Source of the DNA: Cyclobacteriaceae bacterium
GTDB lineage: Bacteria > Bacteroidota > Bacteroidia > Cytophagales > Cyclobacteriaceae
NCBI GenBank assembly: GCA_049430945.1
Contig: JBMTCO010000005.1
Location: 1,001-65,000, forward strand
Length of the DNA: 64,000 bases
Direction: 5' to 3'
The notes beneath the pieces are model-generated. The model did not search any database. It was not told where the DNA came from and saw nothing but the letters and a program-made list of their open reading frames with translations. Both the position numbers and the translations under genes were made by a program. This document shows, one piece after another, positions 24,069-39,880 of the stretch. How positions within the stretch are numbered: position 1 is the first letter of the stretch; every line of letters starts with the position of its first letter.

Positions 24069-24947
24069 TTACTCTTTTGTGATTGGTACAGTAATTCTGA
24101 ATTCATGAGAAGCGCCAAATGAATTGGCAGCTCCCCATCCCGTTTCCCAGCAATAGCCAATTTCAATTTTACCGGCAGCTTTGAAGCCGGAATAGAGCGA
24201 CGCTCCGATACCCTGGTTATAAGCGGCACCGATAAAGAACCACTCATTGAATGTAAAATTTGAACCTACCTCCCAATTTCCGCGCAAATCTTTAACCGTA
24301 CGAAAAATAAATCTTGGTGTGACCTTAAGTTTAAGATTCCCGGACTCAAAAGAATAAAACAATGAGTACCACTGATTATAAAATGCCGAAGGCCTGGAAC
24401 GGTTCAATAACTGATTCAAATCTTCATCACCAGGAAGGAGGTCAGGCAGAGAAAAACCCACCTGCAGATTTCTGAATTCAAATGCTATCCCTGCTGCACC
24501 GGAAGGTTCGGTGCGTCCTTCGGCAGCACGGATAATGGCAGGATCATTTCCGTAGTCAACGCCATTCAAATTAAGTCTTTCTGAAACAAACCCACCGGAA
24601 AGTCCAAGCCGTAGTTTTACTTCCTTACTGAGCGGCACAACATAAGCGATTGCAAACCGGCTGTCCACATTTGTGAGATTCACTGATTCCTGCCCGATTA
24701 TGCTTACACCAAAGTTTACTCGTTTTTTTCCTGAGTGCTGAAATAAAAAACCTGTGGCAACAGGTCCATTGTTAAAGCTAATCCATTGCCGGCGGTGGAT
24801 CAGACTTACATCAAATGCATTGTTGATGCCTGTGAGCGAAGGGTTATAAATTCCCTGATTGGCGAAAAACTGCCTGAATACAGGACCGTCCTGGCAGAGT
24901 GCACCGAAGCCTGAAATCATGACAAGAATGATCAGCAGCGCTCTCAT
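24069..24947 (-). CDS. PorP/SprF family type IX secretion system membrane protein
   Basis: QFFAN...YNPSLTG, HRRQW, beta-barrel-like pattern, C-terminal SHEF; directly downstream of a type B CTD gene. Confidence 0.85.
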   Translation of the reverse strand: MRALLIILVMISGFGALCQDGPVFRQFFANQGIYNPSLTGINNAFDVSLIHRRQWISFNNGPVATGFLFQHSGKKRVNFGVSIIGQESVNLTNVDSRFAIAYVVPLSKEVKLRLGLSGGFVSERLNLNGVDYGNDPAIIRAAEGRTEPSGAAGIAFEFRNLQVGFSLPDLLPGDEDLNQLLNRSRPSAFYNQWYSLFYSFESGNLKLKVTPRFIFRTVKDLRGNWEVGSNFTFNEWFFIGAAYNQGIGASLYSGFKAAGKIEIGYCWETGWGAANSFGASHEFRITVPITKE

Positions 24948-26221
24948 CGTACAATCCGGACTGCTCCGGTTATTGACTTTCTGTTTTCACAACGGATTTC
25001 ATAGTAATAAGCCTCTTCTTCAAGCTGTCCGCCTCTTAATGATTTCCCGCTCCATGAATTGTCGTATCCGATTTTGTCCAGTACAATAGTTCCAAAACGG
25101 TCATAAATAATAAGGCGGCAATTTTCATATTCGAGCGTGTTCTCCCATTGCCAGAAATCATTTATTCCATCTCCGTTGGGACTGAATACTTCCGGGAAGG
25201 GCACAGGCTGAATGTCACCAGATGCAATTAAAAGACTTCGGCGTCTTGGACTGTTTTCAAGAACGAGTTTCATTCTTTCAACCTGATCGGTGGTGAAAAG
25301 ATTCATACAATCATCGTATGTATAGTCCATGTAGTTCTGGTACATGCGCCCTTGTGGGGTGCAGTCTGCCAGAACACCTGTGGGACAACTTTCAGTAGGC
25401 TCGGACTGTACAGGCGTGTCATCAATAAAGTCTGTGGAGGAGCAGCCCTCGCCGTCACCCCAGGTGTGGCGCAAACCAAAAAAGTGCCCCATTTCGTGAG
25501 TCAGAATGCGGCCTTCATTGTATCGGTTATCCAGATTAAATGGACCATCATTCACAGAGCCAAAACTGGCGTAACTTACAATGATGCCATCTGTCATTCT
25601 GCTGTAAGCTTCCCCGGAGGCTGAAAGCCCCTGCAATGTGGATATTGGAAATTGCGTAAAGCCAAAATAATCGGTTAGATTACAAACCCAGATATTAAGG
25701 TAATTTTCAGAAGGCCAGAAACTCAGTGATTTTGCATCGTCATTTTCGGACCGCGAATAACCTGAAAGATTCCCCTTTACCCTTACTATTCCTGAGGTAG
25801 ATTTTCCTGATGGATCAACAGAAGCCAGCACAAAACTGATGTTCATAGATCCTGCGGACTGGCTAAAAGAAGCAGGAGTTCTTACTGCATCATCGTTCAG
25901 TCTCTGAAAGTCATTGTTCAGTACTTTAATTTGAGACATCACCTGCGCATCTGAAATATTGGTTCCCGTTCCTACCGGCTCGCCTTTATGGATGATATGA
26001 ACCACAACAGGAATCGTATAGAAGTTTGCCTGAATGGAAGATTTTCTTGAAGATTTCAAACCGGTTAGCCAGGATTCAAACGTTTCTTCGGATTCGGTAA
26101 TAATCCCTTTTTTATAAAGGTCCCGGTTATGTTCCACTGTACCGCACCTGACTTGTCCCATAGCACCCGACCACTCAGTCAGTGCTATGAAAAAGATACA
26201 CGCGCGTGAAAAGGTAATCAT
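24944..26221 (-). CDS. M43 (pappalysin/ulilysin-like) Zn metalloprotease with T9SS type B C-terminal domain
   Basis: IPVVVHIIH, HEMGHFFGLRHTWG, QNYMDY, and FSPNGDGINDFW...YDRFG...W.G gliding-motility CTD. ATG 26221 chosen because the ORF-track TTG lies in a -7 box. Confidence 0.9.
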   Translation of the reverse strand: MITFSRACIFFIALTEWSGAMGQVRCGTVEHNRDLYKKGIITESEETFESWLTGLKSSRKSSIQANFYTIPVVVHIIHKGEPVGTGTNISDAQVMSQIKVLNNDFQRLNDDAVRTPASFSQSAGSMNISFVLASVDPSGKSTSGIVRVKGNLSGYSRSENDDAKSLSFWPSENYLNIWVCNLTDYFGFTQFPISTLQGLSASGEAYSRMTDGIIVSYASFGSVNDGPFNLDNRYNEGRILTHEMGHFFGLRHTWGDGEGCSSTDFIDDTPVQSEPTESCPTGVLADCTPQGRMYQNYMDYTYDDCMNLFTTDQVERMKLVLENSPRRRSLLIASGDIQPVPFPEVFSPNGDGINDFWQWENTLEYENCRLIIYDRFGTIVLDKIGYDNSWSGKSLRGGQLEEEAYYYEIRCENRKSITGAVRIVR

Positions 26222-26239
26222 TCCAATCCTATGGGACTT

Positions 26240-26247
26240 CAAAGATA
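26240..26247 (-). promoter_or_regulatory. -7 promoter box TATCTTTG (M43 protease-porP)
   Basis: CAAAGATA on the + strand; perfect consensus. Confidence 0.6.
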
Positions 26248-26288: not shown

Positions 26289-26828
26289 TCATTTTTTACA
26301 AATGAGTTTTTTGCTCACTGCCCAGTCAAAAAGTTTATCCTGCAGTGCATCAGCATCTTTACGAGCCACCACTTCATAATCATTATTGTAATAACCCTTC
26401 TGTTCAGTCTGGGTGGTGTATAACTTGTTTGACTGTCTGTTGCGAAGGTCAAGTGAATGTCGGATTTCATGAATCAGAGTATTGAGTAACTCCTTTAAAT
26501 TATTTTCATGGTTAGGATGACGCCAGTATAAAATCACAGTTCTGGTGATCGGATTAAAAGTCCCCATGACATTACCTAGATTTTTCCTTTTATAGCTTAT
26601 TAAAATGCAAGGTCGCCGGTAACTTCCGGTAATTTTATATTGAGACAGAATCCAGTCTGTGCAGTATTCAACAAATTTTTTATTTGAAATGGTAGGGTTG
26701 ATGACCCATATATCTGGTTCTGACTCAAAAATTTGAAACAGGAAATAAATAATTACGGCTACCAGGATGAGGTATGCCCATGCCTCAGTAGTGCCCCGTT
26801 CAAGCTCTTGTAGAAGTGTTTCAACCAT
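26289..26828 (-). CDS. Hypothetical membrane-anchored zincin-like metallopeptidase
   Basis: One TM helix (AWAYLILVAVIIYFLFQIF), HEIRH, and a downstream NDYEVVAR glutamate motif. Confidence 0.7.
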   Translation of the reverse strand: MVETLLQELERGTTEAWAYLILVAVIIYFLFQIFESEPDIWVINPTISNKKFVEYCTDWILSQYKITGSYRRPCILISYKRKNLGNVMGTFNPITRTVILYWRHPNHENNLKELLNTLIHEIRHSLDLRNRQSNKLYTTQTEQKGYYNNDYEVVARKDADALQDKLFDWAVSKKLICKK

Positions 26829-26832
26829 GAGC

Positions 26833-26867
26833 CAAATTTCAAGCCCATCGTTGTAGTCTATTCAAAA
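26833..26867 (-). promoter_or_regulatory. Degenerate operator (TTGTA-GTCTATT-CAAAA, 26851-26867) plus -7-like box GAAATTTG (26833-26840)
   Basis: Same 10-bp operator-to-box register as the three perfect sites; shares TAG(A/G)CTACAA with the 30036 site. Only 8/10 match, so support is positional. Confidence 0.45.
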
Positions 26868-26877
26868 TCTGAAAGTT

Positions 26878-27867
26878 TCAGACGTTATAGTATTTTTTCA
26901 TTTTTTCCACGTGAGCCTTTACGGAGGTAATTAATTCAGGCGGCTCCAGTACTTTTATCCTGCTGCCGAGGCCAAGAAGGGAAATGGTCAGTTCTTCAGA
27001 AAGGTAAACATCCAGCTGAATCACGGCACCTTTTTCATCCTCATCCATGATGCGCTGAGTTGCGTGCAGTGGTTGGATTTTGAGGAAATAAACAGAATCA
27101 GTGCTTACCCAGAAACGAACACAGCTGGGTTTACCTGATTGCAGCGTTGTAATTCCGATGCTATGTTTAAAATATCTGTTCAGATTAAAAGTAGGATCCC
27201 GGTAAAAGGAAACCCCTGCCACATCACGAACTGTCTTGATCCTGTCCAGTGCAAGATTTATGGTAAAATCCTTTTCTGCCGAATATCCGATCACATACCA
27301 TAGGCCTCTGTATTCCTTAAGTGCGTAAGGAGAGAAATAATGCTTGACTACTTTTTTCTGACGCATTGAGCGGTGTTCGATGATGATGCATTTTTCTTCC
27401 AGAATGGCTTCATGCAGCGGCTCCAGAAATTCAACGCCTTGCACCTGAAGATTTGATTCGCTGATAATGGCCGATCCCTCCTTTTTACGCTCAGTAACCT
27501 TTCTGAAAATTTTATTCAATACTGACTGTGCTTCCCTGATGAGCGCGATGTGGCTGTTACCATTCAACACGTTGATTGCAAAATCCAGGGCTTTGATTTC
27601 AGCTTTTTCGAGTTCATTGGTAAAAATTCTGTAATTCTCCTCCTCATAGTAATAACCCCTTTTTCGGGAACAGATGATGGGCGCCTTGAATTCTTGTTTC
27701 AAAAATCTGATGTCACCATCGAGCGTCTCAATTGCCACTGCGGTGCCACCGTGGGCCTCTAGTTTTAAATTAAGTTCATCAAGCAAATGCTGTCTTTCAA
27801 TGTTACCCTGTGCAATCAATTCATCAAGGATTCGGTATCGGAGATATGCATTTTTATTAATTGGCAT
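26878..27867 (-). CDS. HTH-WYL(-WCX) domain transcriptional regulator
   Basis: MPINKNAYLRYRILD N-terminus, wHTH (TLDGDIRFLK), SPYALKEYRGLWYVIG, ALDRI, and C-terminal LQPLH..Q...LGSRIKVLEP. Confidence 0.92.
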   Translation of the reverse strand: MPINKNAYLRYRILDELIAQGNIERQHLLDELNLKLEAHGGTAVAIETLDGDIRFLKQEFKAPIICSRKRGYYYEEENYRIFTNELEKAEIKALDFAINVLNGNSHIALIREAQSVLNKIFRKVTERKKEGSAIISESNLQVQGVEFLEPLHEAILEEKCIIIEHRSMRQKKVVKHYFSPYALKEYRGLWYVIGYSAEKDFTINLALDRIKTVRDVAGVSFYRDPTFNLNRYFKHSIGITTLQSGKPSCVRFWVSTDSVYFLKIQPLHATQRIMDEDEKGAVIQLDVYLSEELTISLLGLGSRIKVLEPPELITSVKAHVEKMKKYYNV

Positions 27868-27933
27868 AGGTGGTATTCAGATTGAAATTGGGTTATGTAA
27901 ATTTAACTTTACTTCTCAGATTGACGACGATGT

Positions 27934-29991
27934 TCAGGCTGCTTTAATTCTTGTTTCCTGTTTCGGGAATTTTGCAGTCACAACTGACTGACCCTTTAGT
28001 GCTGACTTAAGCGCTGACCTGTAAAAATTGCTGCGGGGATTTTCCGATAATGCTTCCGGATCAATTCCTGAACCATACTCCAGGGCCATTTCTCTGAGCA
28101 TAGCACTTTCAATTACCGGATGATCAGATAAATACCCGGAGAGGTGCAGCAACCATTTTTTTTGTGACTGAAGGTATGCTTTAGCGGATTCATAGGCCTC
28201 CTGCAGCCAGGTCGCTGCAATATTCCGTTGTTGTTCGGTGGGCGGAAGGCCGGCATTTGCATGACTCATAGGAAACTCAAAAAATCCGGGCACCTCACCC
28301 ATACCGGACTCAAGCAACATTTCATTAACAAGCCTGGTGGCATTCCGCAAATCGGATCCGGCTCCAAGCGTAATATTTTCCTTCCCGAAAATAATTTCTT
28401 CTGCTGCCAGGCCGCCCATCAATGCAATCAGTCTTAGTTTAAGTTCTCTGAATGAAAGACATCGCTCTGGGTTTTCGTTCCTGGTGAATCCTGCCATATG
28501 TATTTCCGATGTAACAGAATGCACACTTACCGGCACACGATACATCATTCCGATTGAAATTACAGCATGACCGGATTCATGGACTGCTGTAACCGTCTGA
28601 AGCTCATCTTTCCTCGGTTTGCGGAGTTTGTGTACAGATAAACCTAATTCCTCCTCCATCCTGACCATTCTACCTTTTTTACTGCGGAAGTTTTTTACCA
28701 AATGCGTTCCGGTCCAGCTCAGCTCCACAATAGTTAAATCCAGTCCAAGACGGAACCGTTCCACCATAATTTTTCCTGCCTGTGATCCGATGAGTTCATG
28801 GATGGTGGTGAACAGCGGACGAACGCCCTGCGTGGGAAATACGCCTTCACTGAATATCAATTGATGGATAGAGCTGTCAATTTCAAGTTTTACGCCTTCC
28901 TCAAGTGCGCGATTCGAAATTTTTAACAGTTCTGCACTGATAAGTTTTCTGAAAGACTCCGAACTGAAGGCAGGGTAGATCAAGTGACATGAACCCAGCC
29001 GTGCAATCTGCTCAGGCCTGAAACGGCGTGTAAGGGCAGTTCTGATAGTATTGATGTTTATTTCAAGACTCTGCCGGTGAAAATCATCCGGAGAAATATC
29101 CAGGTTCAGGTCATGACTCATCGGGAAAGCCTCATCCAGGTTGCCCATCACAAAAACCAGTCCTTTGCTGCAATCCATAATCTGCTGACCAAGAGAGTCC
29201 TTATAAGTTTTATGTAGGAACTGCAACAGCTCCGCGCCATTAAGTGTATTGATGTGTTTTTCCAGTTCATAAACTGTCTTAAACTTTCCGAGTGTGATTT
29301 CATAAATCTCTTCAAGACTCCATGCCGGTATGGCTCTTATTGCCTTATTGTCATGATGCTTTTCAAATTCCTCCCTCGGTATAAAAGCATGCTGAAAACG
29401 TTTCAGCACCTCGATGTACAATTCATGACCTTCTGTAACAATACCCTTCTCAATGCCGGCGCCATTGGCAAGGGCCGTGGATAATAAATGAATAAGCTGA
29501 AATACGCTGCTTTGTGCGTAACAATTTAGCGTTGTGACCAGTTGCCCGTTATCAAGAATGTCCCAGACATTTCTGATAAAACCTTTATCAATTTCATCAT
29601 CAGATGAATTAATTGTTCGGGCAAGCTGGAATTCATCAAAGGCTATGACCAGGGGCACTCCATTATGGTGAGGATAGAGGTTTTGTAAACCTTTTTTGAT
29701 GGTGTGCTCTTTGTCGTATGCTTCTCCAAGATCAAATTTGAAATAGCGATTTTCAAATCCGATAAGCCGGACAAACCTTGATACCAGTGATGTTTTCCCT
29801 ACCCCTGTAAGACCCCACAGGTTAACAACCAGGGGCCTGTCCTGTAAGTATGGGAAAAGAAACCATGGAGTGGTCACATCAATGACGCGATCAATAACAG
29901 AGTCGATACCAATGAATTCTGATTTCAGCTGAGCTCTGACAGATTCAAACAACCGGTGTTTTTCCAGAATTTCTTCGCCTTTTATAGTCAT
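27934..29991 (-). CDS. Soluble AAA+ ATPase (ClpB D2-like) fused to M41 (FtsH-type) Zn-peptidase domain
   Basis: Walker A GLTGVGKT, Walker B IAFDE, FRPEQIARLG, GVRPL (sensor 2), then HESGH...GGLAAEEIIFG...GAGSDL. No TM segment. ATG 29991 chosen. Confidence 0.85.
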   Translation of the reverse strand: MTIKGEEILEKHRLFESVRAQLKSEFIGIDSVIDRVIDVTTPWFLFPYLQDRPLVVNLWGLTGVGKTSLVSRFVRLIGFENRYFKFDLGEAYDKEHTIKKGLQNLYPHHNGVPLVIAFDEFQLARTINSSDDEIDKGFIRNVWDILDNGQLVTTLNCYAQSSVFQLIHLLSTALANGAGIEKGIVTEGHELYIEVLKRFQHAFIPREEFEKHHDNKAIRAIPAWSLEEIYEITLGKFKTVYELEKHINTLNGAELLQFLHKTYKDSLGQQIMDCSKGLVFVMGNLDEAFPMSHDLNLDISPDDFHRQSLEININTIRTALTRRFRPEQIARLGSCHLIYPAFSSESFRKLISAELLKISNRALEEGVKLEIDSSIHQLIFSEGVFPTQGVRPLFTTIHELIGSQAGKIMVERFRLGLDLTIVELSWTGTHLVKNFRSKKGRMVRMEEELGLSVHKLRKPRKDELQTVTAVHESGHAVISIGMMYRVPVSVHSVTSEIHMAGFTRNENPERCLSFRELKLRLIALMGGLAAEEIIFGKENITLGAGSDLRNATRLVNEMLLESGMGEVPGFFEFPMSHANAGLPPTEQQRNIAATWLQEAYESAKAYLQSQKKWLLHLSGYLSDHPVIESAMLREMALEYGSGIDPEALSENPRSNFYRSALKSALKGQSVVTAKFPKQETRIKAA

Positions 29992-30017
29992 ATACAGGAT
30001 TTGAGGTAACTGGGATG

Positions 30018-30052
30018 CGAAAATAGGCTGAAGCATTGTAGCCTAATTACAA
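30018..30052 (-). promoter_or_regulatory. Operator TTGTA-GCCTAAT-TACAA (30036-30052) plus -7-like box TATTTTCG (30018-30025)
   Basis: Perfect palindrome exactly 10 nt upstream of the -7-like box, in front of the AAA-M41 gene. Confidence 0.75.
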
Positions 30053-30106
30053 CGGGGTAAAGCGATTCAGTTTGACCTAAACCTTCAAAATCACGCTAAA
30101 ATTGAA

Positions 30107-30137
30107 TTTGCACAATCAAAAAATGGGTATAAATTTG
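30107..30137 (+). promoter_or_regulatory. Bacteroidota sigma-70 promoter for tRNA-Val (-33 TTTG, -7 TAAATTTG)
   Basis: TTTG at 30107-30110, a 19-nt spacer, then TAAATTTG at 30130-30137 followed by GC-rich CGCTCC. Confidence 0.75.
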
Positions 30138-30225
30138 CGCTCCTCTTTTGAGGATAGCCTAACAAGACACTTAAGGATATCCGATTTATTTCTTCGGAAA
30201 CAGGCAGTCAGGTTAGGGTAAAATT

Positions 30226-30300
30226 GGGAGCTTAGCTCAGCTGGTTCAGAGCATCTGCCTTACAAGCAGAGGGTCGGGGGTTCGAACCCCTCAGCTCCCA
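30226..30300 (+). tRNA. tRNA-Val (anticodon TAC); CCA not encoded
   Basis: Acceptor stem GGGAGCT/AGCTCCC, D-arm AGCTCAGCTGGTTCAGAGC, anticodon arm TCTGC-CTTACAA-GCAGA, T-loop GGTTCGAACCC. Confidence 0.97.
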
Positions 30301-30319
30301 CTCTTATACTTCATTTCAA

Positions 30320-30354
30320 CTGTTTAATCCCCTTTCAGGGATTTACATAAACAG
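30320..30354. terminator. Hairpin between tRNA-Val and the convergent recB
   Basis: CTGTTTA-ATCCC-CTTTCA-GGGAT-TTACA-TAAACAG imperfect stem-loop. Confidence 0.55.
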
Positions 30355-30468
30355 GTCTCCAAAAATTTTTATTTCTACAACCTTATACCCGTAAAGGTAT
30401 TTTCAAATTCTTTTGACTGAATTCAAATTGCCGGTTATGATTTTTTTAGACCTGAGAATTCACTCTAC

Positions 30469-33400
30469 CTATGCCAAAGCTTTATCACCGCGAAATAAAG
30501 CATCCATTCCTTCAATAACCTTACGGTCAGGCATTGAGTAGAAAATACCTTCTCTTCTGCCACGGCGCACGCCTCTGACAAATAAATAAATAACTCCTCC
30601 AAACTGACTGTCGTAATCAAACCCGGGAATGCGGCTCTGCAAATATCTCATGGCCGCCAGAGTATATAAATGATACTGCAGATTATAATTATTCTCTGCC
30701 ATGGCCATGTTCAGCTGTTCTTCAGAATAATCTTCAACACGGTCACCGAGGTAGTTTGACTTCCAGTCGAGGATGTAAAACTTGCCTTCCCACTCAAAAA
30801 ATAAATCCATCAGACCATTCATAATTCCTTCCAGTTCGGAGCGGCTGCCCATTCCATCTTCATCTGTCAGCGCGACTTTGAAAGGAGCATGTGCTGGCGC
30901 AAGGCTCTGCAGCTCTGAAACCTGAAATGGTTTCAGATCAAGATCAAATTCAAGTTCAGCCATACGATTTGTACGATCAAGTTCTGAAAGCCTGAAGGTG
31001 CCGTCCGGCAAAAGCTGAGTCTCAAGGATTTCTTTTACCATAATGGTTAATGAAGACTCAAAGGAATCAGAAGCACCGGAATCTGCGGAGTTTCGTACCT
31101 GAAAGCGCTTGACCATTTTACTTACCACCGCATCCCATCCATGCGGAGCTGTGAAGTTGACATTTTCAAAAATGGCATGCAGCATATTTCCTGTTACGGC
31201 TCCTTTACGCAGTCTGCGGAAAACAAAATGGTCGTATGCCGTCATGTCCGTACGCTGACTAACCGGAATAGCAACCGGCGTATGATCCGGCGTCAGCCTC
31301 GTGAAGCTTGCACGCCTCCAGTTTTTCTCCCGGAGTTCAAAAATACCTGCGTTTTTATAAACAGCTGTCTGAACCTGCTCAGGAGCAGCCTGCCCCGCAA
31401 GAAGGTTTGAAGGCGGTGTCCATAAACGGATAAGACTATTTTCAGGGCTTTCCAGTTCAAGCTTGGAAAAGAAGCGTCCAAGGAATTCGGCCCCGGAATT
31501 ATATTTTTTATCAGTGAGAATAAAACATTGTTGTTTGGCCCTGGTCAATGCCACATAAAGAAGTCTCAGATTTTCTCGTTCCTGTTGCAGACGATACAAT
31601 TCCATTTTATCCGGATATCCTTCCAGTGTAATTTTATTTATCGTAACATAATCTCCCTGCTCGGTTTGGAATTCAGCAGTTTTATGTTTTGACTGTGAGA
31701 CAGGTTCAAGCTGAGGACAAATTACAATAGGGTATTCAAGTCCCTTTGATTTATGGATGGTTACAATTTTAACGGCATCTTCGTCGCTTTCAATGCGCTG
31801 GATATATTCATCCCCTTCAGGAGTTTCTCCTTCAGTACCCCGCTGAAGCCATTGCACCTGTTCTGCCATGTCATAGCTTTTTCGTACTGAAATTCTGTGA
31901 ATCAGGTCAACCAGTTGCAGCAAATTGGCAACAGAGCGCTCAGCATTTTTTACTCCGGCTTCGTAAAAACGGCTATGGACCTTATGATCTGCCATAAACT
32001 GCTGGAGCATCACATAAACACCCTTTGATTTCCAGGCTTCCTGATATCTGCGAAACCTGGCAATCAGATCTTCACTGTTTGACCTGCTCAGTTGCTCAAT
32101 TGAGTAACCGGCAATATTTGTCAGCAACGCACGGTTCACTTTACTTACTGTCAGTTCATGAATTCCGGACAGTACATAAAATAATTCCAAAGCCTCAGGT
32201 GATTCAAGTATTCCGCTGTCATCCACTGTAACTGAAGGTATCCGGGCGGCAGCAAGCTGCTTTTTTATTTCTTGGCCTTTTGAATTCGTCCTTACCAGAA
32301 TTCCGATATCTGAGAATTTAATATCATTCGGAACACCATTTTTAAGCAGTTTATATTCTCCGGACCAAACCAAATGACTGACCAGGACAGCCAGCGAATT
32401 AATCCGATGGTCAACCTTAGGGTGTGATGATACAAGAACCGGCGCTATATTTTCTCCGTTTCTGGTAAGAATCGCTTTATCGTTTGGAACAGGTGATTTG
32501 ACCTTCATATACTTAAGGTCATTGCCATATCTGAATGTATCAAAGGGACCTCCCTCCTGTTCAGGCAGAAAAAATTTGTTCATTGCATCAATGAGCCTGG
32601 TATTGGAGCGGAAATTCGTATTCATGTAATGTAATGTGTGAACTTCCGATACAGCTTTGAAGTAAGTACTAAGATCCGCCTTTCTCCAGCCATAGATGGA
32701 TTGCTTTGGATCGCCGATGAAATACAAATAGTGCTCTGCTCCGAAGAGCTCTTTAAAAATCCCGTACTGATCGGCATCTGTATCCTGAAACTCATCAATG
32801 AACACAGCATGAAATCTTTCGCGGAGCCGGTTTCGAAGCTCATCCCTCTGTGTCCCTTCCGTAACAGCCTTTCGGACCTGTATGATCAGGTCATCAAATG
32901 TTTTTGAAAGCCTGCGGTCTTTTTCTTTTCCAATCAGGTCAGCAATTGAAGCCATGGCATCGCCTGCAATTTGCTGACACAGGATTCTAAGGCCTGCCTG
33001 TTGTGCATTACACTTGGCAAGGTAGGCTCTCATTTCATTGACAGCAGGGCCGAACACACACTTGTCTCTGATATAGTTTACTTCCTGTTTCAGACTCAAA
33101 GTTTCTGTTAAAGAATCCCATAATTCTCTTTCAAAGTGAACTTTGAAAGCCTTTGATGCGTTTGTGTTATCCTCAAATAACTGCAGAATCGTCTCTTTGT
33201 GATTTTTACATGCTTGAATAAAAGCATTCTTCAAATCTTCCGTCTCCCTTAAAATCTGTAAAATTCTGTTCTGATGCGTCTGCTCCAAAAAATCCTCAAC
33301 AAGCGCTTCCGGATTAAATGGTTTCTTGCCGGAAAGCCCTGACTTGACCATTTTAAAAATCACGGTTCGCTCCATACTGAAATTTATAGGATCCTCATTG

Positions 33401-33975
33401 GGCCTAATAACTGCATGTTCTCGCAACAAGGCTGTCAAAATATCAGGATGAAGGGTGGCAATTTTACTCCGCCAGTAATCATTCAGGTGGTCATCAATAA
33501 GTATCTGATAATCGTCTTCTGACAACATGCCTGTGCCAAAAGCCTGCATGGTCTCAAACGAGAATTCCTGAAGAACACGCTGGCAAAAACTATGAATGGT
33601 CAGCACAGCAGTCTCGTCCAACAAGGCTACAGCATTTTCAAGCTTTTTAATCACCTCCTCCTGTGAAGTGGCATTTATCCGGGCAGAGATGATGTTCTTA
33701 ATATTTACATCGGCATCTGCCGCATTGAGGTCGCGTGCGATCTCCAGGGCCTGCCTCACAAAAGAGCGCACACGCAATTCAAGTTCTGCCACAGCAGCAC
33801 GCGTGAAAGTCACCATCAGGATCTTATTTACCGGAATATTTTTTTCCAATAGCAAACGCAGCGTAAGGATGGCAATGGAATATGTTTTTCCTGTACCTGC
33901 AGATGCTTCAACCGCCTGTGGTTGTTGGATGACATCAACAGTTACAGCTTCAAAATTTTCATTAATAATGGGCAT
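30469..33975 (-). CDS. recB: Exodeoxyribonuclease V beta subunit (helicase + nuclease)
   Basis: EASAGTGKTYSI, TFTRAAVAEL, DEFQDTD, IGDPKQSIYGWR, TIHKSKGLEY, RLLYVALTRA, and nuclease motifs MDL...ILDWKSN and YNLQYHLY. ATG 33975. Confidence 0.93.
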   Translation of the reverse strand: MPIINENFEAVTVDVIQQPQAVEASAGTGKTYSIAILTLRLLLEKNIPVNKILMVTFTRAAVAELELRVRSFVRQALEIARDLNAADADVNIKNIISARINATSQEEVIKKLENAVALLDETAVLTIHSFCQRVLQEFSFETMQAFGTGMLSEDDYQILIDDHLNDYWRSKIATLHPDILTALLREHAVIRPNEDPINFSMERTVIFKMVKSGLSGKKPFNPEALVEDFLEQTHQNRILQILRETEDLKNAFIQACKNHKETILQLFEDNTNASKAFKVHFERELWDSLTETLSLKQEVNYIRDKCVFGPAVNEMRAYLAKCNAQQAGLRILCQQIAGDAMASIADLIGKEKDRRLSKTFDDLIIQVRKAVTEGTQRDELRNRLRERFHAVFIDEFQDTDADQYGIFKELFGAEHYLYFIGDPKQSIYGWRKADLSTYFKAVSEVHTLHYMNTNFRSNTRLIDAMNKFFLPEQEGGPFDTFRYGNDLKYMKVKSPVPNDKAILTRNGENIAPVLVSSHPKVDHRINSLAVLVSHLVWSGEYKLLKNGVPNDIKFSDIGILVRTNSKGQEIKKQLAAARIPSVTVDDSGILESPEALELFYVLSGIHELTVSKVNRALLTNIAGYSIEQLSRSNSEDLIARFRRYQEAWKSKGVYVMLQQFMADHKVHSRFYEAGVKNAERSVANLLQLVDLIHRISVRKSYDMAEQVQWLQRGTEGETPEGDEYIQRIESDEDAVKIVTIHKSKGLEYPIVICPQLEPVSQSKHKTAEFQTEQGDYVTINKITLEGYPDKMELYRLQQERENLRLLYVALTRAKQQCFILTDKKYNSGAEFLGRFFSKLELESPENSLIRLWTPPSNLLAGQAAPEQVQTAVYKNAGIFELREKNWRRASFTRLTPDHTPVAIPVSQRTDMTAYDHFVFRRLRKGAVTGNMLHAIFENVNFTAPHGWDAVVSKMVKRFQVRNSADSGASDSFESSLTIMVKEILETQLLPDGTFRLSELDRTNRMAELEFDLDLKPFQVSELQSLAPAHAPFKVALTDEDGMGSRSELEGIMNGLMDLFFEWEGKFYILDWKSNYLGDRVEDYSEEQLNMAMAENNYNLQYHLYTLAAMRYLQSRIPGFDYDSQFGGVIYLFVRGVRRGRREGIFYSMPDRKVIEGMDALFRGDKALA

Positions 33976-33979
33976 AGAC

Positions 33980-36900
33980 TTATTTAATTGTACCGGGGAA
34001 AAATTCATTTATTAACCGGGTCATTTCCTGAGTATTTTCTTTAAGTATTTCAAAAGTATCTTCTGAAACAAAATCCTGTTCACAGGCTTTCAGGAAATAA
34101 TCATCTCTTAAGGGGTGTGAATCTGCAGAGCGGGCTTTTTCAATCTCTTCAAGCAAATCGGACAATTCCTTACCATTTTTAAATTTACCTATCAGTCCAT
34201 GGAAGAAGTAGAAAAAATTATTTAATCCACCCTTATAATATTCAATGAGCTTTTGCAATTTCTCCTTCGCTCCTTCAGGAGAAATTTTTTCAGGACCACA
34301 AACACTTGCTTCTCCTTTATAATTAATAAATACAAACTCAACGGGTAAACCTGAAGCTACAAGGCCCAGGTAATAAACAATACCACTGAGCATGTGCTTA
34401 TGAGCTGACTTTGAAAAAGTCCACCTCACCATTCGGAGCTTATTTCCGGAATTCAGAATGTCAGCAACCTGACCTTTCAACTGAATGGTTTCATAATCCA
34501 CCTTCACATTCTGCGGACCGGACTCCCATCCATCCGTCCACATTTTTATTTCATAGCGCAAAGGTTCAAGTTCTGCTCTTAAAATACGGGCAGTTGCCTT
34601 GCCGAGATTATGAAGCGGCAGTTTACCGTTATCAGATTGCATTTTGACAATCGCGTCGAAATCACTGTCCTGCATCCGAATCAGCTTATCTGACAATTCC
34701 CGTTCGTCAAAAAATTCAAGCTCAAAGGGTTCATGATCCTTAAGAATCACTTCATCTTCTCTGTACCAGATATCAAAAAACTTAGTGAGAAATGTTTTGG
34801 GAGGGTTTTCGAGGAAATGAGCAATTTCCTGAATGCCTACAATTGCAGAATCAGTCAAAGGAGACTTCCTTGTTTCTCCGATTCTTATATCGATGCGCGA
34901 ACGAAAGCGATCCGGTGACAGATAACTGGTGAGGCCGTGAGGACCATAACGTTTACTAAAACCATGAAGCGGATGAATCGTAACCCAGTCGGCAGTCAGT
35001 TTATCAGGATTTTTCTTTTGAGCTCTTGCTACAAACCCAATCAGTTCATCAACCAGAATACTGGGTGGTAGCACAGCCCCATCTTTCTCACTTCGTGCCT
35101 GGAAGCTGATGTAAAGTTTTTCCTGCGCTGATAATACGGTTTCAAGGAATAAGTGCTTGTCGTTGGCCTTAACGTTCCGGTCTCCTTTTTTATGTTTAGA
35201 AAGCAAACTGAAATTCACCGGTGTTTCCTTGCGTGGAAAGGCTTCAAAGTTCATTCCGAGCATGGCCACAACACGAAACGGAATACTGCGCATAGGAAGC
35301 AGCGAGCAGAATGTTATTCCCTTCGCTGCAAACTGGGTACTGCGTCGTTCCACAGAAAGCTTACTGAGGAAACTGGTTCTGAAAACATCAAAAGGAATGG
35401 CAACCTGCGCGGCTTCCTTCATATCAGTGAGCTGCTCAATCAGACTGATAAACCTTGGATAGTCCTCATCATCCCTTTCGCCTGCCTGAAATACCATATC
35501 CTCAAGTAATTCCTTCAGGTAATCTGCCCAGCCTGCAAGTGTTCTTGGCGTGGCACGCATCTCAATTTTATCACGAAGGACTCGTAAAAAATAAGCAAGT
35601 CTGATGCGATCCAGTCCTCCGGCTCCTTCTTCCGTATCAAGAACAGGAACCAAATCAACGCCATCGGAATAGGATGCATCTCCTTCGGGCTGCATGCACA
35701 ACCCATAAATCATCTTTTTAAGGCCGGTGGTCCAGCTGATTTTGCGGCTGTCGTCATCGTTCGTTCCATCAAGGCCGAAAAAAACTGTAGCCTGCCTGAT
35801 GGCATTTCTGATTTCATCCAGATCATCAAACTGAAATCTGCGCCTGATGTATGGAAAATCCAGCATTCCCATGATTTCTTCTGCCTTAAAGCGCAGACCA
35901 TCGAATTCAAGGAGTGCCTTCAGAGCAGCGAAAAGATTATTTTCTGATGCAATCAGTTCATCAGCTATTGAATATCGGAATCGGTTAGCAGAGTTGCCGA
36001 AAACTGCATGTATATATGGTGCATACAAGTCAATGTCAGGCACCATCACCAGAAAATCGCGTGCAGAATAGTCTGATCCTTCTTTGTCAACCAGTGAAAC
36101 AAAATAATTGTACAGCACCTCTACTTCACGAGGAGGAGTATAGCAGCCGTTAATTATTACCGAACCATCCTTATGATCCTGCGCACCAATGGCAATTTCA
36201 TTTCCTTCCTGAAGGTCCCGGAAGGTCATATTTTTATATATGCCGTAATGAAGGCGGGCAAGAAGGTTAGTCGGATTTTCAGGCGCTACGGCCAGACTGT
36301 CATCATAGCGGTTAATCAGTTCATCATCCTGAAACAATAACCAGAAAGATTCCTTGATGATACCACCCCAGTTGAGCAGCAGATCATTTCCATGAGGTTC
36401 ATTTCCTTCAAAGAGCGGGTTTACATATTTCCCGGTAAATCGTGCAAGCTGCTTTTCTGAAAAGTAATCCAGCCAGTAAACCTCAGGCGCAGGATTAAGC
36501 AGAAACATATGGATGTCAACAAATCCGGAAAGGGCTTTAAAAATTTTCTGGAAAAATGGGGTGACTACGGCAATTCCAAAAATGTACAGGTGGGGCATCT
36601 TTTCAAGAATGCGCTCACGCACTTCAGGCTCATTTAATTTGCTGATGATCAGTCCGGCAATCTGGGTTCTGTCCTTTGCGTTGTCTCCGAAACTGTCCCG
36701 TAACTTCCTCCAGAGATATGGTTGCCAGTCTTCTGAGTTCTCAATTTCTTGGTCAGTAAGATTATTCCAGTCGGTGATGTCGTCTGAACGGTAGATCTGG
36801 TACTGATCAAACAAATCGGCAACTTTCTGCGCAAGGGTCGCCATTCGGATCACATCCCGGTCATAGTAAGACGCAACCTCAGGAAATTTTTCACGGAACG

Positions 36901-37213
36901 CCGGTGAGTCCAGAATTGAATACACTACCCAGCAGATCTCTTCTTTTGAAAATGAATCCTGTCGCTGATTAATACCTGCCGCGATCCACTCAAGTCGACT
37001 TACCACATCAGCAGGCTGGACAAATTGAATGTTGGATGCGATTCCGGTCTGAGCGGCGATGGTATTTTTGAGCCAACTGCTCATGCCGTCAGTCTGAGTA
37101 ATCACAAGCTGTGATCTCATCACACCAAGACCGTGGCTATGGGCGGCCATATCGGTACAAAGACGGCCGGCAAGCCTCTTCAGGTCATTTGAAACATGCA
37201 GTAAAAATGGCAT
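33980..37213 (-). CDS. recC: Exodeoxyribonuclease V gamma subunit
   Basis: LHVSNDL, ADLFDQYQIYR, LLNP...YW, CYTPPREVEVL, VMVPDIDLYAPYIHAVF, FCSLLPMRSIPFRVV, HPLHGFS. Confidence 0.93.
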   Translation of the reverse strand: MPFLLHVSNDLKRLAGRLCTDMAAHSHGLGVMRSQLVITQTDGMSSWLKNTIAAQTGIASNIQFVQPADVVSRLEWIAAGINQRQDSFSKEEICWVVYSILDSPAFREKFPEVASYYDRDVIRMATLAQKVADLFDQYQIYRSDDITDWNNLTDQEIENSEDWQPYLWRKLRDSFGDNAKDRTQIAGLIISKLNEPEVRERILEKMPHLYIFGIAVVTPFFQKIFKALSGFVDIHMFLLNPAPEVYWLDYFSEKQLARFTGKYVNPLFEGNEPHGNDLLLNWGGIIKESFWLLFQDDELINRYDDSLAVAPENPTNLLARLHYGIYKNMTFRDLQEGNEIAIGAQDHKDGSVIINGCYTPPREVEVLYNYFVSLVDKEGSDYSARDFLVMVPDIDLYAPYIHAVFGNSANRFRYSIADELIASENNLFAALKALLEFDGLRFKAEEIMGMLDFPYIRRRFQFDDLDEIRNAIRQATVFFGLDGTNDDDSRKISWTTGLKKMIYGLCMQPEGDASYSDGVDLVPVLDTEEGAGGLDRIRLAYFLRVLRDKIEMRATPRTLAGWADYLKELLEDMVFQAGERDDEDYPRFISLIEQLTDMKEAAQVAIPFDVFRTSFLSKLSVERRSTQFAAKGITFCSLLPMRSIPFRVVAMLGMNFEAFPRKETPVNFSLLSKHKKGDRNVKANDKHLFLETVLSAQEKLYISFQARSEKDGAVLPPSILVDELIGFVARAQKKNPDKLTADWVTIHPLHGFSKRYGPHGLTSYLSPDRFRSRIDIRIGETRKSPLTDSAIVGIQEIAHFLENPPKTFLTKFFDIWYREDEVILKDHEPFELEFFDERELSDKLIRMQDSDFDAIVKMQSDNGKLPLHNLGKATARILRAELEPLRYEIKMWTDGWESGPQNVKVDYETIQLKGQVADILNSGNKLRMVRWTFSKSAHKHMLSGIVYYLGLVASGLPVEFVFINYKGEASVCGPEKISPEGAKEKLQKLIEYYKGGLNNFFYFFHGLIGKFKNGKELSDLLEEIEKARSADSHPLRDDYFLKACEQDFVSEDTFEILKENTQEMTRLINEFFPGTIK

Positions 37214-37225
37214 TGATTATTTTTT

Positions 37226-39073
37226 TCAGTTAGGAATGGAGGGACGGCTAAGTTTCTCGCTGACTCCGGAAGCTCTGGTGACCTGGCGACCGACGCAGGC
37301 TATGATCTGGTCTTTGGTTCCAGAAATGATCACGGACTGTTTGGCGCGGGTGATAGCCGTATATAATAGTTCACGGGTAAGAAGCCTGTGTCCGGGTTCC
37401 TTCGGAAGAAAAATCATAACGGAATCAAACTCACTTCCCTGACTCTTGTGGATGGTCATGGCATAGGTTGTTTCTGTATGACTGAGGTACGCCGGAAGAA
37501 CCGACCGCAATACGGGTTTGCCATGCTCATCCAAGATTCCTGAATCAAACCAAACCCGTAATGTGCCCTCAGCATCTTCTCGAACAATGCCGACATCGCC
37601 ATTCACAAGTCCCAGCTCGCTGTTATTTCTTGTGATCAATACAGGGCGGTGTTTATACCAGACAGTTCCCGTATTAATGAGCTTTTTACTTTGCAGGTAT
37701 TGCTCAATGCGCTTATTCAGTTCATAAAGACCGAATTTACCCTCCCGTACAGCTGTGAGAATGCGAATGGAGTTCAGTTTTTTCAAAGCTTCGGATTTGT
37801 CGTCTTCTTTTATGAAGGCCTCATATCCGGAAGCAAATTGCTTCAGAAGTTCTTCGTCATATTCAACATCAAAAAGTAACTGCGGAGATTTTTTATCCTG
37901 ATCACGCGTCTTTTGGTACAGGTCTGTCAGTTCACCAAGTGTGTCCGCATCATTATGAAGGACAGCTTTTGCAACATTTCCGATCAGACCCAGCGCATTA
38001 AACCGGTGGCTGTACTTAAGTTCAGTGATGAATCCGGAGAGAAGACCCGCGTTTGGAACAGGAACAGGCTGCCCGGGAATGCAGCGTGATTCATCGGTTA
38101 TAAAACGGTTAAACCAATTCTGATCGGAAAAGGAGAAGGCATTAAGTGTTCCTGCAGAACGGCAAAGATCTCCCAGCATACTTCCTGCTTCTACAGATGC
38201 GAGCTGGTTCTGATCGCCAAGTAATATTAATCGTCCATGCTCAGGCAAGGCATCCATCAGTTTACTCATCATTGGCATATCTGTCATACTTGACTCATCT
38301 ACAACGATCAGGTCATAAGGAAGTGGATTTGATTTATTGTGCTTGAAGTGAACCGTGCCTCTTTTATAGCCAAGCAGGCTGTGTATGGTCAGCGCCGGAA
38401 TTTCCTGTATCCACTTCCTGATGTTTTCAGGTTCGTTAGCCACTGATTTACGAAGCGATTCAATCATACGCATGGCGGCCTTACCTGTCGGGGCAGTGAG
38501 GTGAACAATTTTATCCGGATATATGCGATGAAAAATTTTCAGAATTTTTGCCAAAGTGGTTGTCTTGCCTGTACCGGGACCACCGGTAAGAATTGAAAAA
38601 TCTGACAACAGACAACGCATGGCACCAACCAGCTGCCAGTCAACCGCCTCAGGCGTACCTGTAATTCCCGGAGTAAGTTCCGGAAATGATGTTCCGAGGG
38701 ACTTTATAAAATCTAAATTTCTAAGCAGCAATTCTTCACGCTCAGCACGTAATGATGAACTTTTGACAACCGCTGCTTTTATTTTATTAATGACGTTAGC
38801 CTCATACCTGAAATAACGGTGCAGGTATAACTTTCCATTGGTCAGTATAAAGGGTTTGATGTCTGTTTCCTCCGTTCCAACCCAGGTTGAAAGCTTGGAC
38901 CAATCAGGTAATTCTGTCAGATTATAAGGGGGCTGATTAAGCGTTTCTTCCGGATTGATACAGATATGTCCTTCCAGTAAGCGTTCGCTTAACAGATAAG
39001 CAAAAGGTCTGATCCGCAGATCAGGGAAAAACTCAGCAAACTGGCGATGTACATCGTTGGTAATAACAGTCAT
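37226..39073 (-). CDS. recD: Exodeoxyribonuclease V alpha subunit
   Basis: GHICI, LYLHRY, VDWQ, GGPGTGKTT, APTGKAA, VVDESSM, LGDQNQLASVEAG, NGDVG, YAMTIHKSQGSEF, RELLYTAITRA. Confidence 0.95.
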   Translation of the reverse strand: MTVITNDVHRQFAEFFPDLRIRPFAYLLSERLLEGHICINPEETLNQPPYNLTELPDWSKLSTWVGTEETDIKPFILTNGKLYLHRYFRYEANVINKIKAAVVKSSSLRAEREELLLRNLDFIKSLGTSFPELTPGITGTPEAVDWQLVGAMRCLLSDFSILTGGPGTGKTTTLAKILKIFHRIYPDKIVHLTAPTGKAAMRMIESLRKSVANEPENIRKWIQEIPALTIHSLLGYKRGTVHFKHNKSNPLPYDLIVVDESSMTDMPMMSKLMDALPEHGRLILLGDQNQLASVEAGSMLGDLCRSAGTLNAFSFSDQNWFNRFITDESRCIPGQPVPVPNAGLLSGFITELKYSHRFNALGLIGNVAKAVLHNDADTLGELTDLYQKTRDQDKKSPQLLFDVEYDEELLKQFASGYEAFIKEDDKSEALKKLNSIRILTAVREGKFGLYELNKRIEQYLQSKKLINTGTVWYKHRPVLITRNNSELGLVNGDVGIVREDAEGTLRVWFDSGILDEHGKPVLRSVLPAYLSHTETTYAMTIHKSQGSEFDSVMIFLPKEPGHRLLTRELLYTAITRAKQSVIISGTKDQIIACVGRQVTRASGVSEKLSRPSIPN

Positions 39074-39350: not shown

Positions 39351-39373
39351 AGTTATTTCGTTTAATTTTTCCA

Positions 39374-39408
39374 CAAATAAAATGCTCCTGATTGTAGTGG
39401 AAATACAA
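39374..39408 (-). promoter_or_regulatory. Operator TTGTA-GTGGAAA-TACAA (39392-39408) plus -7-like box TTTATTTG (39374-39381)
   Basis: Perfect palindrome exactly 10 nt upstream of the -7-like box, facing the acidic ORF and recD-recC-recB. Confidence 0.75.
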
Positions 39409-39452
39409 CAAGGAAATTCCATCTATTATTCCTTAACAAGAATTTTCTTTCA

Positions 39453-39487
39453 TTGTAAAACCAATACAATTGACTCCCTGATTTTTG
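39453..39487 (+). promoter_or_regulatory. Operator TTGTA-AAACCAA-TACAA (39453-39469) plus -7-like box GATTTTTG (39480-39487)
   Basis: Perfect palindrome exactly 10 nt upstream of the -7-like box, 15 nt before ATG 39503. Confidence 0.75.
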
Positions 39488-39502
39488 ACGCAATTCTATT
39501 TT

Positions 39503-39880
39503 ATGAAAGAAAATCATTCAGAAACCAGTTGCCCGGGCTGCAGCTGGAAGCCGCAGGCTGATCACACATGGTATTGCCTCTGTGGACACAGCTGGAACAC
39601 ATTCGAAACAGGAGGAATTTGTCCCGGTTGCAAAAAGGCATGGGATAAGACGCAGTGTCCGGCCTGCGACAGCTGGTCAGATCATACAGACTGGTATTCA
39701 GGTCTTAAAAAGAAGCTTAGGCAAGATCTTTCTGAATTGCTGCACAAACCACGGAAAAGAAAAATCAAAAGAAAATTTTCAGTTTTTCAATACAGGTCAC
39801 TGCATAATATATCCCTGATTCAGAGAAAAAAATTCAATGCGCCTTTTTTACTTTTCAGAATACCGCCGCTTAAAAATTGA
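39503..39880 (+). CDS. Cys-rich Zn-ribbon-like hypothetical protein
   Basis: CPGC...WYCLCGHSW...CPGC...CPAC..WSDH.DWY (8 Cys) followed by a basic low-complexity tail. Confidence 0.7.
   Translation: MKENHSETSCPGCSWKPQADHTWYCLCGHSWNTFETGGICPGCKKAWDKTQCPACDSWSDHTDWYSGLKKKLRQDLSELLHKPRKRKIKRKFSVFQYRSLHNISLIQRKKFNAPFLLFRIPPLKN

Follow-up and report, generated by a model that had tools for sequence, protein, structure and literature searches.

A soluble AAA+/M41 protease paired with a WYL-domain regulator in Bacteroidota, a candidate nucleic-acid-damage-responsive module

Results

The stretch of Cyclobacteriaceae bacterium DNA analysed here, 64,000 nucleotides (nt) long (assembly GCA_049430945.1, contig JBMTCO010000005.1, positions 1,001 to 65,000; hereafter the window, whose numbering is used throughout), carries three co-oriented genes on its minus strand, which encode an AAA+/M41 protease, a WYL-WCX transcription regulator and a small membrane zincin. 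We show here that the conserved unit of this locus is the pair of protease and WYL regulator, not the set of three genes. The open reading frames (ORFs) were called at 27934..30036 (700 amino acids, aa), 26878..27867 (329 aa) and 26289..26828 (179 aa). The gaps between them, 66 and 49 nt, agree with those given in an earlier reading of the bare sequence, the original prediction, and neither holds a terminator-like site. Since the protease homologues all begin at M16 of the called ORF, and since the ATG at 30036 is part of an operator (TACAATG) and is not conserved, reading TACAACG in relatives, we take the coding sequence to be 27934..29991 (685 aa). Upstream of the protease, on the opposite strand, lies tRNA-Val (30226..30301, plus strand), with an exact -7 box, TAAATTTG, pointing towards it, as expected of the divergent tRNA promoter that had been proposed as one boundary of the module. 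Two of the three genes had also been described as HExxH metallopeptidases, and the motifs HESGH (protease) and HEIRH (zincin) are indeed present, each conserved in its family.

The protease (27934..29991, minus strand) was classified by Pfam, by a homologue profile and by fold matches. Pfam assigns it a Peptidase_M41 domain (PF01434; 7.9e-20, 72 bits against a cut-off of 29.9 bits) and ClpB_D2-small, while PF00004 (AAA) stays at 18.6 bits, under its 21.2-bit cut-off, and the FtsH equivalog TIGR01241 reaches 57.5 bits against a cut-off of 600 and covers the peptidase part alone. When a profile built from 25 homologues was used for domain matching, residues 465-650 matched FtsH/YME1 protease domains (~1e-21), residues 294-437 matched ClpB/Hsp104 NBD2 and residues 13-99 matched the NBDs of ClpE/Skd3; the ATPase module carries an insertion of ~120 residues. 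In the window the protease motifs read GLTGVGKT (Walker A), DEF (Walker B) and HESGH, followed by the conserved D of GxxSD, and the corresponding elements (GLTGxGKS/T, DEF, HExGH and the GxxSD region) are invariant in the 25 homologues. No transmembrane (TM) segment was found in the protein, whose highest 19-residue Kyte-Doolittle mean is 1.39 and whose N-terminus consists of hydrophilic helices. The AlphaFold2 (AF2) model, with a pLDDT of 75, has FtsH as its top Foldseek matches. By its sequence, the protease is thus a soluble chimeric enzyme in which a Clp-D2-type motor is joined to an FtsH-type M41 chamber, presumably assembled as a hexamer. It belongs to M41 without being an FtsH, because it has no anchor, its AAA module is of another clade and its equivalog score falls short; canonical FtsH copies are present elsewhere in the genome. 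Among 8000 candidates scored, 974 matched the family, and the source names of the 120 matches listed are all either 'hypothetical' or automatic FtsH/M41/ClpB-domain labels.

The second gene (26878..27867, minus strand) encodes a protein in which Pfam finds WYL (PF13280; 1.4e-11, 44.6 bits) and WCX (PF25583; 4.4e-7, 30.6 bits), both over cut-off, and no helix-turn-helix (HTH) domain. The generic WYL model of PADLOC also matches (1e-26), with an alignment that starts at residue 15, and the nearest solved chain is that of the PafBC-RNA polymerase complex 7p5x (9e-9). This is the only gene of the genome with a WYL match. LexA was not found in the genome; a non-canonical LexA exists in some Bacteroidota (PMC8565304). 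We called ORFs in 87 protease loci and clustered the neighbours. A WYL gene lies within 5 kb of the protease in 48 of the 87, and it is the only broadly recurrent neighbour. It usually stands directly upstream on the same strand, or divergently, so that the order seen in the window, with the WYL gene downstream, belongs to the minority. Gene-neighbourhood conservation across Bacteroidota, which had been named as a check, is therefore found for the protease-WYL pair and not for the zincin, which is limited to close relatives.

In the majority clade, the divergent WYL/protease intergenic regions drew attention to a 31-nt motif, which was then scanned for at up to two mismatches. It reads CAYNYTTTGGCG-N11-TANNTTTG, typically GACATACTTTGGCGTAG...TAGnTTTG, with a core that can also be written GACAT.CTTTGGCG, and is placed 16-29 nt upstream of the protease start, also in loci where a same-strand WYL gene comes no more than 60-90 nt earlier. 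The motif is non-palindromic and contains the canonical -33/-7 promoter of Bacteroidota, to which it adds further conserved positions near -33. A generic inverted-repeat scan for a palindrome shared across distant loci gave nothing consistent, the shared element being this promoter motif. Among loci with adequate flank it is present in 30 of 42 that are WYL-linked versus 4 of 28 without WYL (Fisher p=2.5e-6), and it was not found before WYL genes. Together with the 48/87 linkage, a promoter motif that tracks WYL upholds the claim of a functional tie between the WYL regulator and an ATP-dependent HExxH protease. Of the four isolate genomes searched for the motif, those of Mangrovibacterium, Mongoliitalea and Aquiflexum each have it once, at the promoter of the protease, and that of Bizionia lacks any match at up to one mismatch. 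The motif (GACAY.YTTTGGCG...TAnnTTTG) also occurs before neighbour genes in seven loci (L022, L027, L036, L057, L059, L074 and L100). The genes concerned encode DnaB_C-like proteins of ~276-322 aa, a 256-aa family without Pfam match and several small ORFs, which suggests small local regulons.

The family is widespread and patchy. Species-representative genomes yielded 276 confirmed loci from Bacteroidota, Ignavibacteriota, Marinimicrobia, Balneolales and others; in the genus of the window organism the protease is found in 1 of 24 other genomes, and in its order in 2 of 16 other families. Cultivable carriers include Algoriphagus marincola, Mongoliitalea lutea, Mangrovibacterium lignilyticum and Bizionia hallyeonensis among the WYL-linked kind, and Dysgonomonas gadei and D. 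macrotermitis among those with RtcB. The single same-genus orthologue (locus L011, genome G003) has 33% identity to the window protein, stands divergently next to RtcB and groups on the tree with jumbo-phage copies; it may represent a separate acquisition. The tree resolves a cellular clade (n=83, support 0.93) in which WYL-linked loci occupy the basal branches and recur all over the clade, and the linkage is, judged from this topology, ancestral. Nested inside it is an RNA-repair clade (n=23, support 1.0) whose sister group consists of the window protease and that of locus L016; this Bacteroidales clade has lost WYL. Full-length homologues are also carried by ~50 IMG/VR contigs (L110-L159), mostly jumbo phages of 200-500 kb with low GC. 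These copies keep Walker A and HExxH intact, have neither WYL nor any other constant neighbour, and branch basally on the tree with the exception of three that cluster with the same-genus orthologue. Some of the phage contigs are ~360-400 kb long and low in GC, a size that fits Jug phages, and are possibly from gut phages. Jug phages infect Bacteroides, and the paper that describes them does not mention the protease gene (PMC12880540).

In the window lineage the protease promoter carries a different element. A perfect palindrome, TTGTAATTAGGCTACAA, occupies 30036..30052 (minus strand), 45 nt upstream of the true protease start, and 10 nt downstream of it a -7-like box, TATTTTCG (30018..30025, minus strand; consensus TAnnTTTG), can be read from the sequence, which is conserved in relatives as TACTTTCG / TACCTTTA. 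The protease promoter lacks a -33 TTTG at the proper spacing, and the operator therefore seems to occupy the -33 place. The operator, spacer included, is conserved in position in the close relatives (L014, L015, L169-171) despite diverged flanks. Written as the pattern TTGTA-N7-TACAA, it has three exact sites in the window (30036-30052, 39392-39408 and 39453-39469) and six in the genome, against two for a control pattern. Five of the six are intergenic, at three promoters, and four of these five form two pairs. Sites with one mismatch number 92, against 146 for the control pattern. As these are at background, only exact sites were used, and the case rests on placement and pairing; a one-mismatch site inside the zincin ORF (26808-26824) falls under the same background frequency.

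That both metallopeptidase genes have the operator, as had been stated, is true of the protease, with its exact palindrome; the zincin gene has a variant only, TTTTGAATAGACTACAA (26851..26867, minus strand, upstream of the gene), which shares the right arm, has a similar spacer and is degenerate in its left arm. The variant is conserved in the same five relatives. A refined pattern that covers both window sites finds, in ~5 Mb, besides these only the orthologues and one independent place, the WYL/protease intergenic region of a distant metagenome-assembled genome (locus L086), whose WYL protein is the second-closest homologue of that of the window. This recurrence beside a close WYL homologue links the operator with this subfamily of WYL proteins.

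The two other exact sites of the window lie 44 bp apart in a 152-bp divergent promoter (39351-39502). One (39392..39408) faces a unit of an acidic ORF and recD-recC-recB, and the other (39453..39469) a divergent Cys-rich 125-aa ORF (39503..39880). Pfam identifies recB (30469..34008), recC (33980..37213) and recD (37226..39073), all on the minus strand, as putative co-regulated targets; the first ORF of their unit encodes 62 aa and is very acidic, and the Cys-rich ORF has no Pfam match. RecC occurs in only 2 of 41 relatives, and RecBCD is thus also accessory here; in the RecC-bearing relative G024 the contig ends inside recD, before the promoter. On contig C12 of the same genome (8084-9319) lies a further pair of exact operators, 55 bp apart, followed by a small ORF and the gene of a PDDEXK_1 nuclease; this is the third promoter of the putative regulon. 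The small ORF (88-100 aa) has no Pfam match, and the nuclease (247 aa) is AddB/Cas4-like and Cys-rich.

Elsewhere the protease keeps other company. Sixteen loci adjoin RtcB, 15 of them from Bacteroidales (Dysgonomonas, Tannerellaceae and relatives), the remaining one being the own-genus copy with its divergent RtcB. The Bacteroidales order is RtcB, a PrfH-like RF-1, in some loci a small HELGH protein, the protease, Tpt1/KptA and TatD, and the RtcB-PrfH-protease-Tpt1-TatD operon is conserved in L026, L040, L043, L047, L052, L056, L064, L083 and others. The small HExxH protein (197 aa, HELGHHHD...GENYAE, without Pfam match) stands directly upstream of the protease in six Bacteroidales loci; homology to the window zincin was considered and none could be demonstrated (hhalign probability 12%). 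Most frequent among the 150 neighbour proteins of WYL-protease pairs are PDDEXK_4 (8), DUF2779/Cas4-like proteins (7), DEDDh exonucleases (4) and DUF2130 (3), and DnaB_C-like genes are also found there. Such nuclease and RNA-repair neighbours, and the operator common to recDCB and a PD-(D/E)XK nuclease gene, support the nucleic-acid link of the original prediction; a defence function in the narrow sense, such as the abortive infection that it coupled to this link, has contextual support only. PADLOC (PADLOC-DB 2.0) names no system for the genes of the module and returns generic WYL models only, the best protease matches having E=0.02 and the zincin none, as had been anticipated. Among the neighbours of the pairs it reports PDC-S26 (= PDDEXK_4) in up to 10 of 150 and, sporadically, GmrSD, McrBC, BrxL, HEC-06, PD-Lambda-2 and HigB. 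On the enrichment near defence islands, which had been named as a check, the outcome is that the pair neighbours are enriched in matches to defence candidates.

The third gene (26289..26828, minus strand) encodes a predicted membrane-anchored mini-gluzincin of 179 aa with a TM helix at residues 16-34 and the motifs NTLIHEIRH and GYxNN.YExxAR. Pfam gives a sub-threshold M90 match only, and PF06114 (M78) matches neither peptidase. With the AF2 model (pLDDT 72) the best Foldseek matches are selecase and jannalysin (probability up to 0.96, E 0.05-0.3, all >0.04, TM(target) 0.5-0.6), those to IrrE/PprI having probabilities of 0.2-0.4 and E>0.17. A word-based search found six homologues only, and a full profile search 86 distant relatives, 160-200 aa long, that have a TM helix, NTxIHExxH, GYxNNPFExxAR and a conserved HExxH...E. 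The gene stands beside protease and WYL only in close relatives (L014, L015 and L169-171), down to ~65% protease identity; it was found in 0 of 400 genomes of other Bacteroidota, and the family has no IMG/VR matches in phages. Three relatives have usable context, in hypothetical-rich regions without WYL or protease, two of which carry DnaB_C-like, DUF2130 or bPH_2 genes; for two others (P0127 and P0128) the contigs are too short. The three-gene module that had been proposed is therefore confined to one lineage, and the unit is the pair, the zincin being, as far as its distribution tells, cargo added to the operon in this lineage rather than a conserved member of the module.

Close relatives keep the gene order recC-recB-(HD_4)-tRNA-protease-WYL-zincin-M43-PorP. 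The last two genes lie directly downstream of the operon in the window (24069-26242) and encode an M43 peptidase with a CHU_C sorting domain, secreted by the type IX secretion system (T9SS), and PorP/SprF; both are kept in relatives and seem to have no connection with the module. The HD_4 gene (185 aa, RelA/SpoT-type HD), placed between recB and tRNA-Val in L169/L170/L171 (5815-6372), is absent from the window (corresponding to ~30053-30468), which marks an indel at the tRNA. A single mobile island bounded by tRNA-Val was considered and set aside, as there was no integrase or repeat evidence; no closer examination was made.

Discussion

We favour, with moderate confidence, a reading in which the core of the operon is a nucleic-acid-damage-responsive WYL-protease module of the PafBC/DriD kind. 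A WYL dimer would bind TTGTA-N7-TACAA in the -33 place, 10 nt upstream of the -7 box, and would sense single-stranded nucleic acid as it arises when DNA breaks or replication stalls, or from phage DNA. It would then switch on the operon, itself included by autoregulation, together with RecBCD and the nuclease, and the protease would be the proteolytic output of this nucleic-acid-damage response. What the protease does in such a response is the speculative step: it would most likely unfold and remove proteins that block damaged nucleic acid or are trapped on it, or else a specific regulator. We lean towards the removal of trapped proteins because the two independent wirings of the protease are to DNA-end processing and to RNA/ribosome repair. 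The sister clade in Bacteroidales has this protease without WYL and wired into the RtcB-PrfH-Tpt1-TatD RNA/ribosome-repair operon, and the zincin would be an accessory gene added by the window lineage, with its own weak operator variant.

Several observations weigh against so broad a proposal. The six exact operators compare with ~2-3 expected, a modest excess, and the argument rests on their placement; binding of WYL to the operator we infer only from co-occurrence. An operator that overlaps a promoter would fit a repressor as well as an activator, and CapW and BrxR, both WYL proteins, act as repressors that respond to single-stranded DNA (PMC11662680, PMC9122601). The 31-nt motif has one target in three of the four isolates and none in the fourth, so that a 'global damage regulon' is not general. 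Finally, the WYL-less homologues of jumbo phages indicate that the enzyme works outside any damage regulon. As to the direction of control, the lack of a -33 element at the protease promoter suggests activation, unlike the repression by BrxR and CapW.

A dedicated anti-phage module, in which WYL senses phage nucleic acid and sets free or induces the protease, the effector against phage or host proteins in abortive infection or direct restriction, appears possible but rather unlikely. It would account for the patchy, accessory distribution of the protease in the genus and of RecC among the relatives, for the PDC-S26 candidates among the pair neighbours and for the homologues in jumbo phages, as expected of arms-race genes, and WYL regulators of the BrxR/CapW type do adjoin defence systems (PMC9122601, PMC9122588). 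However, the protease matches neither a system nor a protein model of PADLOC, the Bacteroidales protease is stably embedded in an RNA-repair operon, and the genes that would be co-regulated here are repair enzymes. Phage-borne copies with intact motifs also argue against an intrinsically suicidal effector.

A bolder version of the damage reading, which we regard as quite unlikely, sees in the protease a dedicated ATP-dependent protease for nucleic-acid-protein adducts, a functional counterpart, in bacteria and jumbo phages, of SPRTN/Wss1 plus p97. Induced by single-stranded DNA (ssDNA) via WYL, it would clear trapped proteins from broken DNA ahead of RecBCD; rewired to RtcB-PrfH-Tpt1 in Bacteroidales, it would clear proteins or nascent chains from damaged ribosomes and RNA. 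Very unlikely, in our judgement, is a general cytosolic quality-control protease, a soluble FtsH paralogue whose expression WYL merely tunes to stress. Its canonical FtsH-like catalytic motifs, the stand-alone genes in many loci and in phages, and the canonical FtsH copies elsewhere in the genome would suit such a role, but it leaves unexplained the operator common to recDCB and the nuclease gene, the nuclease and RNA-repair neighbours and the patchy distribution in the genus. Least probable is a three-component switch in which zincin, protease and WYL act together, for example by zincin cleavage of a regulator or anti-regulator as in IrrE-DdrO and ImmA-ImmR: the single operon with short gaps and no terminators, the conserved operator variant of the zincin gene, the weak resemblance of its fold to IrrE/PprI and the unrelated small HExxH protein of the six Bacteroidales loci speak for it, but the zincin leaves the pair below ~65% protease identity, its relatives live in other contexts, neither peptidase matches M78, regulator cleavage of the IrrE/ImmA/CapP type has no direct support for either, and no homology to the Bacteroidales protein could be demonstrated.

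Returning to the candidate damage-responsive pair, its components can be compared with several known systems. With FtsH, YME1 and AFG3L2 (MEROPS M41) the protease shares the M41 domain with HExxH and an Asp ligand region, the ATPase-then-protease order and the best structural matches. In contrast to FtsH, which has two TM helices, it has no TM anchor, its ATPase is of the Clp/Hsp100 D2 type with the large insertion, and it is an accessory gene under putative WYL control. PafBC, SiwR, DriD and DdaA are ssDNA-activated WYL activators that bind the -26/-35 region (PMC11804915, PMC10693628, PMC9186387, PMC12392091). The likeness to these lies in the WYL-WCX architecture, in an operator at the upstream element of the promoter and in putative recombination and repair targets in a LexA-less genome. 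The operator sequences are different, however, the conserved target here is the protease and not recA, didA or DinB-like genes, and the regulon seems to be a single gene in most genomes. PafBC is itself encoded beside an AAA+ protease system, in the Pup-proteasome locus, which recalls the WYL-protease pair. BrxR and CapW, for the latter of which ssDNA sensing has been shown (PMC11662680), are likewise local WYL regulators of variable regions, each partnered with an accessory cargo gene, but the cargo here is not a known defence system. The RtcB-PrfH module has been described without a protease (PMC9304027, PMC9223846), while 16 loci have the protease gene within or next to RtcB-PrfH(-Tpt1-TatD); beside the window protease there is neither RtcB nor PrfH. 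The zincin resembles the minigluzincins (selecase, jannalysin) and ImmA/IrrE (M78) as a small zincin with HExxH and then a Glu on the next helix, and these are its best non-significant folds. It differs from them in its N-terminal TM anchor, and it has no Pfam match over cut-off and only Foldseek matches at E>0.04.

In the papers on RNA repair, WYL regulators and jumbo phages that we consulted for a module of WYL and an M41/FtsH-like protease, no description was found of the architecture or of the pairing. WYL regulators are emerging as LexA-independent master switches of DNA-damage and defence genes, and no conserved proteolytic output of theirs has been described beyond the indirect linkage of PafBC to the proteasome. 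The analysis defines a large, uncharacterised, membrane-free M41 family with a Clp-type motor and hundreds of members, together with a dedicated WYL regulator, two promoter/operator motifs and an alternative wiring into RtcB-PrfH RNA repair. Thus, the pair may offer an entry point to the nucleic-acid-damage response of LexA-less Bacteroidota and to the substrates of a soluble FtsH-like machine.

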